Shown: positions 1 through 6,368 of the stretch, piece by piece
How the letters are laid out: every line of letters starts with the position of its first letter
Numbering within the stretch: position 1 is the first letter of the stretch
IMG/VR virus record: IMGVR_UViG_3300007538_000020
Coordinates: 1 to 64,000 of that record
Strand: one strand, 5' to 3'
Source of the DNA: a virus
Length of the DNA stretch: 64,000 nucleotides
Notes under the pieces: model-generated
Databases searched by the model: none
Told to the model about the DNA's origin: nothing
Seen by the model: the letters and a program-made list of their open reading frames with translations, nothing else
Made by a program: the position numbers and the translations under genes

Positions 1-335
1 CATACTATACCCCTAAGAAAATGTGATTTTCTTTAAAACATGTAATTACTTACTGTCCATTTTAACCTCAAACTTCAGTCGTACCGTACGTATCTAAGAT
101 TAAATAATCATCTTAGTTCACCTTCGAGGGGCCATCTCTATCAACCCTATAGGCTTATTCCCTCCTACAACCTTATATTAAGGCAATTTTTAGATCTATC
201 GGGGACAACTTCAGACTATGTATATTACTTTGAGGATATAATGTAAAACCTTGTCCTATCAACCCAACTTCTGTTCCTCTTTCTGTACTTTAGTAAAGTA
301 TGACGCTATGGTATTTAAGCTAAAGGAAGTAATTG
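1..335 (-). ncRNA. Putative structured ncRNA or long 5' leader transcribed leftward
   Basis: No long ORF; higher GC than flanks; lies downstream of the promoter at 344-375; internal repeats CTATCAACCC (138-147, 256-265) and AACTTCWG (71, 207, 266); stem GGACAA/TTGTCC. Confidence 0.4.
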
Positions 336-343
336 ATCTACTG

Positions 344-375
344 CAAAGATAAGAAAAAAAAATTAAACTACCAAA
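344..375 (-). promoter_or_regulatory. Bacteroidota sigma70-type promoter pointing left
   Basis: Minus strand reads TTTG (375-372), 20-nt spacer, TATCTTTG (351-344), matching the -33 TTTG / -7 TAnnTTTG consensus. Confidence 0.75.
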
Positions 376-574
376 TTTTTAGTCACTTTTTTTTAATATT
401 TTTTAAAATTTTTTTGAAACCCTCTGATATCAATAGTTCTATAAAAATTTTTTTTATATTTTTTTAGATTTGTGAGAGAATAAACGGGTGTACCACCTTA
501 TATTCAACCCGCACTCGGTCGGGGCAGAGGGGGAATACCCCCTCAACATTATTCATTAAACAAACTTTAGAGCT

Positions 575-859
575 ATGAGCACATTCAAATTAGTACGCAA
601 AAGTGCTACCTCAAACGGTAGGTTTTGCTTGAAATTCGTCGGTACAGTTAACCGTGGTTTCGGCCACGATACCACTACGCTTTATGCGTACGTATCAGAG
701 ACCGAAATGGAGGTCGACGACGAGATTGACATTCAGGTAAACGGCAACGAGGCAGTGGTTGCAGGAGAGTTTACCATGAGCATTGAGAAGAGAGAGTGGG
801 AGACAGAGGACGAAGAGACTGGAGAAGTAAAAGTAATAACCACTAAGTGGTTGCGATAG
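575..859 (+). CDS. Hypothetical early protein (GC-richer than genome, acidic C-terminus)
   Basis: 94-aa ORF; A-rich upstream region; GAAA-tetraloop hairpin over the stop (854-871). Confidence 0.75.
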   Translation: MSTFKLVRKSATSNGRFCLKFVGTVNRGFGHDTTTLYAYVSETEMEVDDEIDIQVNGNEAVVAGEFTMSIEKREWETEDEETGEVKVITTKWLR

Positions 860-873
860 AGAAATCTATCGTA

Positions 874-928
874 ATGTCTAAATGTATCAGTACTCAGCGT
901 TTTGTTGAGTATTGATATGTCTAGATGT
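874..928 (+). other. Long intergenic RNA hairpin (~26 bp, G-U rich)
   Basis: ATGTCTAAATGTATCAGTACTCAGC pairs with GTTGAGTATTGATATGTCTAGATGT; most deviations are G-U wobbles on the + strand. Confidence 0.7.
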
Positions 929-978
929 ATCAATATTTGTTCATAATAATCTTCATTCATATTTAATTTTGGTTAATT

Positions 979-1082
979 AAATCGTATAATAGAGTATTAT
1001 ACTTTACTATCTACCTGCGTTTATTGTTGAATCATGTAATGCACTGTAGATTAGTAGAGTATAGTATTCTATTGTATGATTT
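979..1082 (+). other. Long intergenic RNA hairpin (~36 bp, G-U rich)
   Basis: 979-1014 pairs with 1046-1082; substitutions are G-U-compatible, plus one bulge. Confidence 0.75.
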
Positions 1083-1110
1083 ATTGATTAATTAATTAAA
1101 CTTTACTACT

Positions 1111-1278
1111 TTGAAAGAAACAAACAATACATTTATGCATGCTGACTATGTTAAGATGCGTATTAAGGAAGCTAAGAAAGCTCCTAAGATGAACAATCTT
1201 CGTAAGGAAATTGCGTTGAAACTAACTCAAGGATACAATAAGAGTCCTTTAGAGTATAAATTAAGGTTATTTAAATAA
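1111..1278 (+). CDS. Small basic hypothetical protein (55 aa, TTG start; below ORF-track cutoff)
   Basis: Open frame MKETNNTFMHADYVKMRIKEAKK...; preceded by the ACTAC start motif. Confidence 0.5.
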   Translation: MKETNNTFMHADYVKMRIKEAKKAPKMNNLRKEIALKLTQGYNKSPLEYKLRLFK

Positions 1279-1523
1279 AATAGTTGAGTAATTTGTTGAT
1301 TATGAGTGAATTTGTTGATGCCTGGACCAAAGTCCACATATCTCATCATTCTAAATTAACATAATATTCCTCTAATCTTATTATATAGCCAAACTTACAC
1401 TTGCCAATGGTGTTAATCTAGTAAGAAAAATAAGGAGAAGTCCTTGTTGCGTTTTCTTTGGCTTTATAAAAAGCAGGTCTTTACGCAACGAAAACTAATT
1501 TTTCAAACAATAAAACAACTACC

Positions 1524-1739
1524 ATGAAAACTTTTGTTATTTGTACAAGAAGTTCAACATTTGCATCACTAATATCAGTAGATGATTGTGGTTTTGTAGT
1601 TAATGGTTTAGATAATAATAAGTTTAAAGATGGTTATTATTATCTTATTCATGTTGACAATACAAATCCAAATATTCCTATTATTAGTAGAATATTTGAA
1701 TTTAAAAAAACTCAAAAATGTAATCTTTTCAACTTTTAA
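1524..1739 (+). CDS. Hypothetical protein
   Basis: ORF track; AACTACCATG start context. Confidence 0.65.
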   Translation: MKTFVICTRSSTFASLISVDDCGFVVNGLDNNKFKDGYYYLIHVDNTNPNIPIISRIFEFKKTQKCNLFNF

Positions 1740-1758
1740 ACATTAAACTTAACTACCA

Positions 1759-2085
1759 ATGAAAGAACAAATAGAATACTTAATAAAAAAATATACCAAA
1801 AGATTAGAGATATATACTTTGGATAAAAATGCAAATTTTTTTCATCAGACTATTGATAAATATACTGAGTTTCTTAAAGATTTAGATGAACTCAAGGATA
1901 TAGCTGAAAAACAAGCATTTGAACATGAATTAGCAACAAAACCTATTTATACTGGTGATGCTGATTTAGATGGATTAGAAGATGATGAAGTTATACGTAA
2001 TATATCTAATATTGAACGTACTCATCAAGCTTTTAAAGATAATAATGCCGATATTGATGAGGATAACATTCCTTATATATATTAA
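1759..2085 (+). CDS. Hypothetical protein
   Basis: ORF track; TAACTACCAATG start context. Confidence 0.7.
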   Translation: MKEQIEYLIKKYTKRLEIYTLDKNANFFHQTIDKYTEFLKDLDELKDIAEKQAFEHELATKPIYTGDADLDGLEDDEVIRNISNIERTHQAFKDNNADIDEDNIPYIY

Positions 2086-2090
2086 AATCT

Positions 2091-2167
2091 AATTGGTAGT
2101 TAGTTTTGAATGAGAATGTCTATGTAATATTATTATGTAGATGTTCTCATTCTTTAACTACCAAATT
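2091..2167 (+). other. Long intergenic RNA hairpin
   Basis: TTGGTAGTTA/TAACTACCAA outer stem plus GAATGAGAATGTCTATGTAAT/ATTATGTAGATGTTCTCATTC inner stem with G-U pairs. Confidence 0.7.
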
Positions 2168-2300
2168 ATTAACTGATTATAAAACATAACTCATGAAAAC
2201 TAATCAAATAGAAGAATATGGCTTAACTATATCAGAAAAAACTGGATGCCTAATTAATAGAGCTGTTATTCATTATTTTTTTTAATTTAACCTAACTATC

Positions 2301-2537
2301 ATGAAAATATTATTACTTGGATTTGATGATAATGGGGCATCTACATTATGTAAAGCTTTATCATCCAAAATACCAGATTCAGTTGAAGTAAACATTGTTG
2401 AAGTAGAACCAAAAACATTAATGGTTCCAATTAAAGCTCCTGATTTAATGGATGTAGATACTTATGTTTTACCTAATTATGTAAAACCTGGTAAATACAG
2501 TAAAAGAGCTTATAGGAAATCTAATAAAGTTATTTAA
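2301..2537 (+). CDS. Hypothetical protein
   Basis: ORF track; TAACTATCATG start context. Confidence 0.65.
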   Translation: MKILLLGFDDNGASTLCKALSSKIPDSVEVNIVEVEPKTLMVPIKAPDLMDVDTYVLPNYVKPGKYSKRAYRKSNKVI

Positions 2538-2635
2538 AATATAGAATTAAATTCGTATCTTTAACTAGATATAGAATAGAGTAATTGTTTTTTGTAAGTT
2601 TTTTCAAAACCTCAATAAAATATAATAAAAACTTA

Positions 2636-2700
2636 CACGCTAATGCAGCTAAAGATATTATCTTTAAGAGTCCAAAACCTCTATAAATGCAGATGGGTGA
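2636..2700 (+). ncRNA. Twister self-cleaving ribozyme (type P1)
   Basis: CGC-UAA-UGCA-GC-[P3 UAAAGAU/AUCUUUA]-AGAG-UCCAAAAC-CUCU-AUAAA-UGCA-GAUGG-GUG aligns element by element with the twister consensus; T1 pair CA/UG; predicted cut U2641^A2642. Confidence 0.8.
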
Positions 2701-2979
2701 TTTTGAATAATAAATAAAAAGATTATGAAATCATTTTTTAAATCAATACTTATAGGAATAGTAACAGGAACATTGTTCTTTGTTATATTTACATTTTGTT
2801 TTTTAATCATATTCATTATATAAACCTTAATAAATGAAAAGAAAAAACTTTAACAGAAACGTTGTAGCTCGTAGAAAGGTTGCTATGAATAATTTGTTTA
2901 AAAAATTAGATAATCCTGATTTATCAGAATCTGATATTTTAAGAATCAATAATGAAATATCAATTTTAAAAAAGAGATT

Positions 2980-3312
2980 ATGATAGTATTATTATTAACT
3001 ATATTTTTTATTTGGTTTACAACTTCTATTATTTGTACATTACTAATTCGTATAAAAGATTATTCAGAAATGAGTAAAATATATAAGAATTTGAAAATTG
3101 AAGATTTTCAAGCAAGAGTTCTTTTAGTAAGAAATAAAGACTGTTCAATTGTTTGGTATCTTGAAAATAATAGTTTTTGTATAAATGATAAAAAAAGAAT
3201 ATACATTCATAACGATAAGTTTTTATTTCTATTTTTACCATTAGATTATTACTGGTGGTTGAAATATAAAAATTGGTTTCAAACAAATTGTTCTGAACTA
3301 ATAAAAGAATAA
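2980..3312 (+). CDS. Hypothetical membrane protein
   Basis: N-terminal hydrophobic segment. Confidence 0.65.
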   Translation: MIVLLLTIFFIWFTTSIICTLLIRIKDYSEMSKIYKNLKIEDFQARVLLVRNKDCSIVWYLENNSFCINDKKRIYIHNDKFLFLFLPLDYYWWLKYKNWFQTNCSELIKE

Positions 3313-3316
3313 ATTG

Positions 3317-3419
3317 ATTTGATTACATTAGTAAACCAATATAAGAAGCAAAATAAAGATAAGTAATATTATCACAGTAGTTTTTTAGTATTATATTGCT
3401 ATTATTAATGTAATCAAAT
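3317..3419 (+). other. Long intergenic stem-loop
   Basis: ATTTGATTACATTAGTAA pairs with TTATTAATGTAATCAAAT. Confidence 0.55.
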
Positions 3420-3950
3420 TTTATTAATTATGAAAAATAAAAATACAATTGTTAATGTAATATTTTTTATAGTATCTTTAACAATTTTAGCAATTATTGT
3501 TTTTACGTAAAATATTCAACTAATGCGTTATTTAAAATTTATACTTTTTATATTAAGTGTGTTTTTATTCTCATATTTAATACTTGTTTTTGTTTATTTT
3601 GATTTTAATGTACTTTCACAAATAGAAAACAGATTAAGTTTTTTAGTTATTTCTGCTTGTATATTATTATATTCATTAATTACTATGGCATTAAATAAAT
3701 AAACCTAACAAAAGAGTTTGTTAGAGCAAAATATAATAAATATTGCCCTAAAATAGAGTGGGTGGATTAAAATAACTCTATTTGAGAATGGACGTTTAGA
3801 TGTAGTATAACGTATATAATTCTGTTCAATAGTTCTTTTTTATATACTTTATTTAATTAATTTTTATTTTGGTTAATTGAACAACGATAATTTTATTTTA
3901 TTTACTAGTTAAAGGTTACTACATACCTTTAATTTTTTAAACTAACTACT

Positions 3951-4133
3951 ATGAAAGAATTAATAGAATTACAAATCTTAATATTAAATAATAAGATTAA
4001 AGCTAATACTGAAGAAATCATTAGCAAAAAACTAACTGATCATCCTTCAAATATTGTTCGATTAAAAGCTAAGAATGATGCTTATAATGAATCTATTTTG
4101 ATGTTTAACCAATTATTGTTAAATCTAAAATAA
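3951..4133 (+). CDS. Hypothetical protein
   Basis: ORF track; TAACTACTATG start context. Confidence 0.6.
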   Translation: MKELIELQILILNNKIKANTEEIISKKLTDHPSNIVRLKAKNDAYNESILMFNQLLLNLK

Positions 4134-4142
4134 TTTGATATT

Positions 4143-4478
4143 ATGAAGTCGAATAAATTAGTAATGGTAACTAATATAATTCTTATTGTATTAATTACTT
4201 TATTTTTAAGTTATTGCACTGAAAATAATCACGAAAAGAAAACGATATTAATAACTCCTAATGATACAGAATTATTTATTCTTGATTTAGATAATGATTT
4301 TTTTCTGTTGTTAGAAGATGATTCTATTATATATACTGGTTACGATACCAATATAGTTTTAAATACTATATTAAAAAACAGTGATGATTTTATATTTATT
4401 TCTAATAATTATAAATATTATTATAATTTAAATAAAGATTCAGCTAGAACTGTATTATATAATATCATTAAAAATTAA
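4143..4478 (+). CDS. Hypothetical membrane/lipoprotein
   Basis: Signal-peptide-like N-terminus followed by Cys (LSYC). Confidence 0.6.
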   Translation: MKSNKLVMVTNIILIVLITLFLSYCTENNHEKKTILITPNDTELFILDLDNDFFLLLEDDSIIYTGYDTNIVLNTILKNSDDFIFISNNYKYYYNLNKDSARTVLYNIIKN

Positions 4479-4509
4479 TAAATTTGTTTTAAACAAAAAA
4501 TCAAAAGCT

Positions 4510-4809
4510 ATGTTTTACGTAGGACAGAGAGTTGTTTGTATCAAAGACCATTCGCTTCGATTTATTAAGAAAGGCGATACCTTTACGGTTTTAGATATAA
4601 ATTCATGTAGTTGTGGAGATATTCATTTATTAGTATTAACCACAAATCACCCTGCTTATCGTTGTGGTATTTGCAATATAATTCATGAAAAGGGGGATTG
4701 GTATGCATCCTCACAACTATTCGCCCCACTAGACGAACAACCCGAACTATCTGAAACCACATCTGAAAACTGGATTGAACGGCTACTACCCGAACCTGAA
4801 TTAGTTTAA
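4510..4809 (+). CDS. Hypothetical SH3-like/Zn-binding protein
   Basis: FYVGQRVVCI start; CSC and CGIC motifs; GC-richer codons. Confidence 0.65.
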   Translation: MFYVGQRVVCIKDHSLRFIKKGDTFTVLDINSCSCGDIHLLVLTTNHPAYRCGICNIIHEKGDWYASSQLFAPLDEQPELSETTSENWIERLLPEPELV

Positions 4810-4832
4810 ACATTAATTAAATATTAAAATAT

Positions 4833-5207
4833 GGGGGATATATTAGCATATCGATTGCAATATTGAAGTTTTACAAACAGCCTGTGGATTAACCTATTTT
4901 ACACAGTAAAAATTGATAGGAACTCTTTTTAAATGGCAACTCTAACGTTGTAATTTCTGAGAATAGCGACATTGACGCTATTCTTAATGGGTTTACTGCA
5001 GACCTGGAAACAGAAGCAGTAGAAGCTGAAGAGCTGGCTCTGGTAGCCTAAACTAACTTTTCTTAGTTTAGTAAAACTAAGTGGTGGATGCTTGTCTTCG
5101 GACAGCCCTTTTAGTTTTGGAATTAGACTTTAACTAATTATCCTAAGCTGTAAGTATTTTGTAAAATGAAAGATTGTAAGACAGGGGTTGGAATCCCCTA
5201 TCCTCCA
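4833..5207 (+). ncRNA. ssrA: tmRNA (transfer-messenger RNA)
   Basis: Acceptor stem GGGGGAT/ATCCTCC with G3-U70 Ala determinant and discriminator A; T-arm AGGGG-TTGGAAT-CCCCT; internal tag frame 4935-5051 GNSNVVISENSDIDAILNGFTADLETEAVEAEELALVA* ending in a hydrophobic ALVA degron-like end; CCA not encoded. Confidence 0.9.
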
Positions 5208-5211
5208 CAGC

Positions 5212-5354
5212 GTTACTTGATCTAGCTCTAGGAAAGTAACTACTATTGGTAGAAGTTAGCTACACGAATAGTCCTGATGGCTGCTTTATAAGCATAAAAA
5301 GTACTCCATCCACGCAGAGTAGGTGTGCAGATCGATATGAGATCTAAGCTCTGT
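5212..5354 (+). ncRNA. Unassigned multi-hairpin RNA between tmRNA and tRNA-CAT
   Basis: Stems GTTACTT/AAGTAAC, ACTATT/AATAGT, GATGG/CCATC, GCAGAGT/GCTCTGT enclosing AGATC/GATCT; GC-rich; no ORF. Confidence 0.45.
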
Positions 5355-5500
5355 ATTTTTTTAGCGGGAATGAAGGCTGGTGGTGATGCCTCAGTAGTCT
5401 CATAAGCTACTAACTTAATTGTGTGTGGGTTCGATTCCCACTCCCGCTTCTATTTATAATTAAACTAAACTAACTATGAAATACAAGCTCTGTATTTTTT
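5346..5500. repeat. 16-bp direct repeat AAGCTCTGTATTTTTT flanking tRNA-CAT
   Basis: Exact copies at 5346-5361 and 5485-5500. Confidence 0.8.
5363..5449 (+). tRNA. tRNA with CAT anticodon (Met-like), atypical long D-arm and variable region
   Basis: AGCGGGA/TCCCGCT acceptor; GTAGT-CTCATAA-GCTAC anticodon arm; GTGGG-TTCGATT-CCCAC T-arm. Confidence 0.8.
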
Positions 5501-5701
5501 ATTTAATTATTTAAACATAACAATCAATAAAAACTTATTAATTATAAGCATTATTTTCCTAGCTTCATGTGGAAATCCTATCGTTTTTGAAAAAGCAATA
5601 GAAATAATAACAGATTATATGAGAAAACACTCAAAATTAGGTTAAGAAGATATGCATAATATCACTATTCAATATCATATAATGCATTAACAAATATTAT
5701 T

Positions 5702-5881
5702 ATGAGTAGAACAATAGATTACTGGTTAGAATCTAATGATAGAATAAAATTAGATGAAAAAATAAAAAGATATTTTGATAGATTTCCTAGCAATGCTTAT
5801 GGTACTTATATACTATCAGAAGAAGTAACAGAAAGTGGATATATAAAAGTTACAATAAGAAGAGATAGGAGTTGTGATTAA
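5702..5881 (+). CDS. Small hypothetical protein (59 aa)
   Basis: Open frame MSRTIDYWLES...RRDRSCD*. Confidence 0.5.
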   Translation: MSRTIDYWLESNDRIKLDEKIKRYFDRFPSNAYGTYILSEEVTESGYIKVTIRRDRSCD

Positions 5882-6368
5882 TTTAAATTTAAAATTTATG
5901 AGTAAAAATATATGCTTTGCTTATTATGGTGATAATACATTCTTAGGTTGGTATTCTGATACGTTTGGAACTTTAGATAAAAATGTACCTAAAATATATT
6001 CAAATTCTGAAAAACAAATAAGTATTATCAGAAGTAATTTTAATTACAAAATGGATATACTTAAAGGTAAAATAGAAGAACACTTATTTAAAAATTTAAT
6101 TAAATCTAGTAATCATATATTATCTAAATACGATAATATAGAATTACGTATTGTAAAATGTCCTATTTACGATGGCCCTAATCCTAATTTTAATAAAGAA
6201 GATTATATAAAATGGTTAGATACAAAAAAAGAAGGAGAAAAATATAATATACCTACTTGGATTTATGCTAATATAGAAGAAGTAAAAGAATGGGCTAAAA
6301 ATGAACCTACTAGATTTATTGATGTTATAAAATATAATTACAATGAGTTTGTTCAAAAAGAAAATTAA
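5874..6368 (+). CDS. Hypothetical protein (likely start at internal Met, MSKNICFAYYG)
   Basis: ORF track. Confidence 0.65.
   Translation: MINLNLKFMSKNICFAYYGDNTFLGWYSDTFGTLDKNVPKIYSNSEKQISIIRSNFNYKMDILKGKIEEHLFKNLIKSSNHILSKYDNIELRIVKCPIYDGPNPNFNKEDYIKWLDTKKEGEKYNIPTWIYANIEEVKEWAKNEPTRFIDVIKYNYNEFVQKEN

Follow-up and report, generated by a model that had tools for sequence, protein, structure and literature searches.

A type-P1 twister sequence with a mismatched T2 pseudoknot in an uncultured phage

We find that a 64-base element of an uncultured phage of about 95 kb (window positions 2637-2700) is, judged by its sequence, a type-P1 twister ribozyme by descent, equipped with the optional stems P0 and P3. 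On balance, we read it as a twister that formerly cut a multi-gene transcript and has since lost most or all of its activity through a C.A mismatch in its T2 pseudoknot, i.e., as a copy that was crippled or attenuated recently and not a working processing site. The window is the whole stretch of DNA that was analysed (64,000 nucleotides), taken from the start of an IMG/VR virus record of 94,981 bases that is estimated to be 92% complete. Its + strand encodes a ribonucleotide reductase, a DNA polymerase, helicases and a Sak4-like protein, and its - strand carries a 3,823-codon ORF. Twisters were already known in phages; the phage twister is an ordinary class, and the window copy is an ordinary example of it.

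Architecture of the element

The Rfam twister-P1 model (RF03160) matched the + strand from model position 1 to 68 with a score of 48.7 bits and a bias of 0.0, and this was the single match in the whole 95-kb genome. The E-value was 4e-10 when 301 b were searched, 1.7e-8 for 12 kb and 3e-11 for the 95-kb genome (one family). The score falls short of the Rfam gathering score for RF03160 (67.2 bits), and a default Rfam scan listed three tRNAs and, the score being below the cut-off, no twister. The initial annotation had called a twister from the letters alone; all of the elements that it named were found in place on checking the sequence (Table 1), and the assignment to the class is borne out by a model match that is significant genome-wide, even if below the gathering score, and by a core that is near-identical to those of other phage twisters.

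Table 1. Positions of the ribozyme parts and of the neighbouring reading frames in the window.
Feature	Positions	Strand	Basis or remark
Twister-P1-type ribozyme sequence	2637..2700	+	Full extent of covariance-model match
P0/L0 auxiliary hairpin	2593..2637	+	Sequence, MFE fold; P0 is a known optional stem (PMC5408937, PMC11662667)
P1 5' strand (C2638-C2640), predicted scissile site U2641^A2642, A2643	2638..2643	+	cmscan alignment
P2 5' strand UGCA (2644-2647); L2 G2648 C2649, the T2 5' half	2644..2649	+	cmscan alignment, viral alignment
Optional P3/L3 hairpin, 7 bp UAAAGAU/AUCUUUA (2650-2656/2660-2666), loop AUU	2650..2666	+	cmscan, MFE fold
P4 AGAG (2667-2670)/CUCU (2679-2682) around L4 GUCCAAAACC (2670-2679)	2667..2682	+	cmscan; L4 architecture from PMC5408937
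L4 halves: C2672, C2673, A2674, A2675 (T1); A2677, C2678 (T2)	within 2667..2682	+	
Linker AUAAA (2683-2687); P2 3' strand UGCA (2688-2691)	2683..2691	+	cmscan alignment
L1 3' strand GAUGG (2692-2696); P1 3' strand (G2697-G2699)	2692..2699	+	cmscan, viral alignment
Upstream 78-codon ORF	2301..2537	+	Ends 55 nt before P0; no PHROG match, no relatives in viral contigs
Downstream ORFs: 32 aa (hydrophobic; putative), 49 aa (basic), 110 aa (hydrophobic N-terminus)	2725..3312	+	First ATG 24 nt past the ribozyme

In both the cmscan alignment and the MFE fold, the essential stems P1 (3 bp), P2 (4 bp) and P4 (4 bp) follow each other in canonical order around L1, L2 and L4. P1 joins C2638-C2640 to G2697-G2699 through three pairs, one of them G.U, and the short P1 that the initial annotation had listed as a caveat is therefore real. 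An alternative P1 (UUAC 2632-2635 with GUGA 2697-2700, ACGC bulged) would be possible, yet its bases are already taken by P0. At the cleavage site, U2641^A2642 is followed by A2643, and G2692 is followed by A2693; A2642 aligns with the general-acid adenine and G2692 with the general base (cmscan alignment), the catalytic roles of the L1 nucleotides of twisters having been described elsewhere (PMC11662667, PMC9901934). In L4, the closing G-C (G2670, C2679) and the conserved U2671 and A2676 are present, as checked at the level of nucleotides, the last two being those that form a trans pair in the published L4 architecture (PMC5408937). The MFE fold of 2580-2710 consists of the upstream hairpin together with P1, P2, P3 and P4. 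Its folding energy is ordinary (z = -0.87 relative to shuffles), so the evidence for a twister rests on similarity in sequence and structure and not on stability.

The upstream hairpin pairs 2593-2603 with 2627-2637 through 11 perfect base pairs closing a 23-nt loop, and it stands immediately upstream of the P1 5' strand with no linker in between. Published descriptions of twisters include an optional stem, P0, directly upstream of P1 (PMC5408937, PMC11662667). The presence of a hairpin abutting P1, which the initial annotation had noticed, thus holds, whereas the gating of folding proposed for it is unneeded, since the known P0/L0 stem suffices to account for it. Under a strict criterion, 13 of 26 distinct viral twisters have an abutting hairpin, while the rate at control positions of these loci was 13.4%. 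In several other viral twisters (L002, L023, L040 and L007), the U-run after P0 doubles as the P1 5' strand, and P0, standing directly ahead of the cleavage site, there resembles an intrinsic terminator.

Comparison with other viral twisters

For comparison, we collected twisters from viral contigs by pattern. A pattern for the 3' half (GTCCMAARCC...TAAANGCNGAKGG) returned 27 stretches, of which 26 have the full twister signature; the remaining one (L019) lacks it and was set aside as a chance match. A looser pattern added six further real twisters. Some alignment columns were fixed by the search pattern and are hence invariant by construction, while the covariation of P1, P3, P4, T1 and T2 was not fixed. 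In the alignment of 30 distinct viral sequences, 90.9% of cells were paired under the fold including both pseudoknots (66% in shuffles). The covariation score was 0.597, a value reached by none of 500 shuffles (0.160 in shuffles), and it collapsed when partners were slid by 1-3 columns. P3 covaries across the viral twisters as well.

The first pseudoknot, T1, is complete in the window element: C2672-G2696, C2673-G2695 and A2674-U2694 are Watson-Crick, with the trans A.A pair A2675.A2693 in addition. The initial annotation had taken the CA/UG found here in place of CC/GG for a compensatory change, and it is a true one, considering that the pair corresponding to A2674-U2694 is A-U in 16 and C-G in 14 of the 30 distinct viral twisters and is unpaired in none. 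An A-U pair in T1 is thus, among these sequences, a common natural variant. In a related vein, the twister of one phage (L078:1496-1573, equivalent to G008:C1:17939-18003) has U-A, A-U and C-G as its T1 pairs, L4 GUUACAAGCC and L1 GAGUA, with an 8-bp AU-rich P1 and a score of 54.9 bits; its host record is a complete 104.7-kb phage with terminal repeats.

The element belongs to a subgroup of AT-rich phage twisters in which an A-U pair of T1 replaces C-G (for example L025, L007/L012/L014, L022, L004 and L008; G001-G005). These share with the window the core TAATGCAGC ... AAGAGTCCAAA-CCTCTATAAATGCAGATGG, and the window core agrees with that of viral twisters such as L025 and L007 at all positions outside A2677 and the variable stems. 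About 40 nucleotides of the core recur unchanged in other viral twisters, while the flanks share no similarity; only the L012 and L014 loci share distant replication genes with the window. With flanks unlike and cores alike, the conserved unit is the ribozyme itself. Like the window element, the AT-rich twisters have P3, commonly an abutting upstream hairpin and one copy per genome, and they lie between co-oriented small ORFs without assigned function. They differ from it in that all have AAGC (T2 intact), in that P1 usually has 5 bp (UUUAC/GUAAA) and in their unrelated flanks. The five closest relatives (G001-G005) and G008, which have all features intact, score 52.4-61.4 bits, all below 67.2 bits, and the window element is the lowest scorer of the subgroup. 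As intact relatives also fall below the Rfam cut-off, the low score is typical of this subgroup.

Set against the type-P1 description (RF03160; Roth et al. 2014 per PMC5408937), the window shows, in order, P0, P1, UAA, P2, GC, P3, P4/L4, the UAAA linker, P2', GAKGG and P1', with both catalytic nucleotides, the L4 G-C and U.A closing pairs and a complete T1. It departs from that type in the C.A mismatch at one T2 pair, in its sub-threshold score, in the T1 A-U where the Rfam consensus has C-G, in the P1 of only 3 bp and in the AT-rich stems.

The T2 mismatch and its likely cost

In the published architecture of twisters (PMC5408937), T2 forms between the conserved GC of L2 and the two bases of L4 that are framed by its U.A and G-C closing pairs. 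Of these two T2 pairs, the window element forms G2648-C2678, while C2649 faces A2677 and is mismatched. This C.A had been entered by the initial annotation as a mere caveat, on account of AAAC in L4 where AAGC is the consensus; the mismatch is real, and the minor weight given to it does not stand, since it falls on the pair C14-G30, at which non-Watson-Crick pairing abolishes activity (PMC5113685).

Across the 30 viral sequences, C2649.A2677 is the sole unpaired T2 cell of 60. The other 29 sequences are Watson-Crick in 58 of 58 T2 cells, six of them by way of compensatory changes. At the pair G13-C31, 25 sequences have G-C and 5 have A-U; at C14-G30, 28 have C-G and 1 has G-C, with the window alone mismatched. 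Nature therefore keeps Watson-Crick pairing at these positions. The six compensated twisters are L040, L046, L048, L049, L052 and L038, five with L2 AC/L4 GU and one with L2 GG/L4 CC. No other twister with AAAC was found in the viral contigs, with patterns that admitted A, and the other matches to the 3'-half pattern are all AAGC. Scans for AAAC twisters gave 6 matches in metagenome contigs and 3 in genome contigs, none of them with the 5' half or P4, and these were regarded as chance. An alternative T2 register (G2648-C2678, C2649 bulged, U2650-A2677) was also weighed, and nothing was found in its favour.

The cost of such a mismatch can be gauged from the rice twister Osa-1-4 (PMC5113685, PMC9901934), which shares the T1/T2 double-pseudoknot core with the window element and differs from it by lacking P0 and P3 and by its all-G-C pseudoknots. 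In the correspondence between the two, C2649 is C14, A2677 is G30, G2648 is G13, C2678 is C31 and G2692 is G45, so that the window element is equivalent to the inactive Osa-1-4 single mutant G30A combined with the active-type double change C27A/G47U. All non-Watson-Crick combinations at C14-G30 are reported to abolish the activity of Osa-1-4; the U.G wobble of C14U is given as tolerated (PMC5113685). G30 is also one of four positions where all substitutions give a relative activity below 0.20, as measured at pH 8 and a single Mg2+ concentration on this twister, which has neither P0 nor P3 (PMC5113685). In a survey of about 2,600 natural twisters (McKinley et al.), imperfections in P1, P2 and P4 were harmless, whereas non-wobble mismatches in the 2-bp pseudoknot greatly diminished cleavage (PMC11662667). 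Given the C2649.A2677 mismatch, cleavage of the window element is most likely strongly reduced or lost.

The course of events that we favour is as follows. In the intact relatives, the RNA would cleave itself at the U^A step (U2641^A2642 in the window) and so divide a transcript of several genes; the upstream product would carry the P0 hairpin and a 2',3'-cyclic phosphate at its 3' end, and the downstream product would open with a 5'-OH, followed by the ribozyme body in its folded form. The enrichment of P0 beside phage twisters fits this idea of hairpin-capped upstream and ribozyme-capped downstream RNAs. A single G-to-A change (A2677) would then have turned the T2 pair C14-G30 into C.A, and cleavage of the window copy would have been strongly slowed or lost. 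This change is in line with the AT bias of the genome; an assembly or minor-allele artefact is also conceivable. Apart from it, Watson-Crick pairing is complete in P2, P3, P4 and T1, and neither catalytic nucleotide is missing. With all other parts perfect, either the hit was very recent or some activity is still under selection, and the state of these parts fits the one as well as the other.

A possible but distinctly less probable reading, and that of the initial annotation, is that the element is a working twister, which tolerates the C.A, for example through an A+.C wobble or through the stability lent by P0, P3 and the 4-bp P4, and which cuts the transcript past the 78-codon ORF and ahead of the small ORFs that follow. 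No catalytic or other conserved nucleotide is altered and the stems are perfect, P1 is dispensable according to the literature and harmless when short or imperfect, and the intact relatives occupy the same kind of intergenic, co-oriented setting; natural twisters also tolerate many imperfections, with about 94% of tested candidates cleaving (PMC11662667). The mismatch, however, sits exactly where Osa-1-4 needs Watson-Crick pairing for activity, is of the non-wobble kind that greatly lowers cleavage in natural twisters, and has a counterpart in 0 of 29 other viral twisters, six of which compensate instead. In addition, twisters bearing P0 already cleave worse on average (0.40 compared with 0.85; PMC11662667). 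Some activity at lower pH is conceivable, as the tolerated U.G wobble has an isosteric counterpart in A+.C with a protonated A. We think it unlikely that the C.A is kept on purpose, making the element a slow or conditional cutter that acts, for example, when A2677 is protonated (A+.C) or Mg2+ is high; if true, the state of the infected cell would set the timing of transcript processing, and the element would be a natural 'tuned-down' twister.

Little weight is likewise given to the view that A2677 is not the true or dominant base of the phage, i.e., that an assembly error or a minor allele hides an AAGC sequence and an active ribozyme. The record is a metagenome assembly, and the departure concerns a single base where 29 of 29 other sequences have G or a compensated base; on the other hand, consensus errors are rare in short-read assemblies and nothing singles out this site. 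Lastly, a resemblance by chance, or a structured element of another kind without twister ancestry (such as a terminator or a cluster of protein-binding hairpins), might be suggested by the sub-threshold score, the folding energy no better than shuffles and the ease with which AT-rich DNA forms hairpins, but it is effectively refuted by the genome-wide E-value over the full model length at zero bias, by the shared core amid dissimilar flanks and by the match being the only one in the genome.

Genome setting and wider meaning

Small co-oriented ORFs flank the twister on either side of a spacer of 187 nt (from the end at 2537 to the ATG at 2725). None of the ten neighbouring ORFs has a PHROG family, and neither the 78-aa nor the 110-aa flanking ORF has relatives among the viral contigs. 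The early region and the membrane-peptide ORFs of the initial annotation are putative labels; a hydrophobic frame of 32 codons is nothing unusual in DNA of 23% G+C. A blastn search of 2000-4000 against GenBank phages gave no match. A Bacteroidota-type promoter motif is absent from both strands near 2500-3500, and scans of 1-6000 for sigma-70-like promoters and terminators stayed at or below the expectation from shuffles. In the spacer just upstream of P0, ATATAGAAT occurs twice on the + strand, 30 nt apart (2539-2547 and 2569-2577); the idea of a phage promoter word was dropped, as it is not enriched in the window as a whole. The viral twisters, too, are mostly intergenic and co-oriented with small ORFs. 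The downstream genes of ten other viral twisters have no family in common, so no gene-specific role emerges.

In the window, the DNA polymerase gene shares the strand of the twister and lies 18.6 kb downstream of it. Three distantly related phages whose DNA polymerases are 35%, 31% and 37% identical to that of the window (G004, G005 and G008, respectively) carry one twister each, with T2 intact, which precedes the polymerase gene by 13-23 kb and is encoded on its strand. No twister was found in other polymerase-related phages, namely the complete G010 and eight others, mostly fragments. In this group, the element is thus of old standing with a patchy distribution, and the G-to-A change is, on the sequences compared, specific to the lineage of the window.

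Transcript processing by twisters is offered in reviews as a suggestion only (PMC6765202). Such a role is plausible for the family and doubtful for the window copy.

The HDV-like theta ribozymes of gut phages, which Kienbeck et al. reportedly described in 2024, lie next to tRNAs and have been proposed to act in tRNA maturation. They resemble the window element in being a small self-cleaving class that recurs in large uncultured phages, and differ from it in their fold and in standing beside tRNAs, the nearest tRNA being 6 kb away from the window twister. Elsewhere on the + strand, the Rfam tmRNA model gave a sub-threshold match over its full length at 4851-5200 (33.2 bits, gathering 47; E 2e-10 on 12 kb), for which ARAGORN made no call, and a weak tRNA-Sec-like match follows just after this region at 5364-5447 (28.3 bits, E 0.035), also with no ARAGORN call.

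Little hangs on the window copy as such, which would be a convenient natural test of what a T2 mismatch costs. More can be taken from the set around it. The compensatory changes in both pseudoknots of natural phage twisters independently support the requirement for Watson-Crick pairing in T2, and P0 is several times commoner beside phage twisters than at control positions. The AT-rich phage twisters with A-U in T1 score 49-61 bits and hence form a subgroup that is missed by the default Rfam threshold and by routine annotation.
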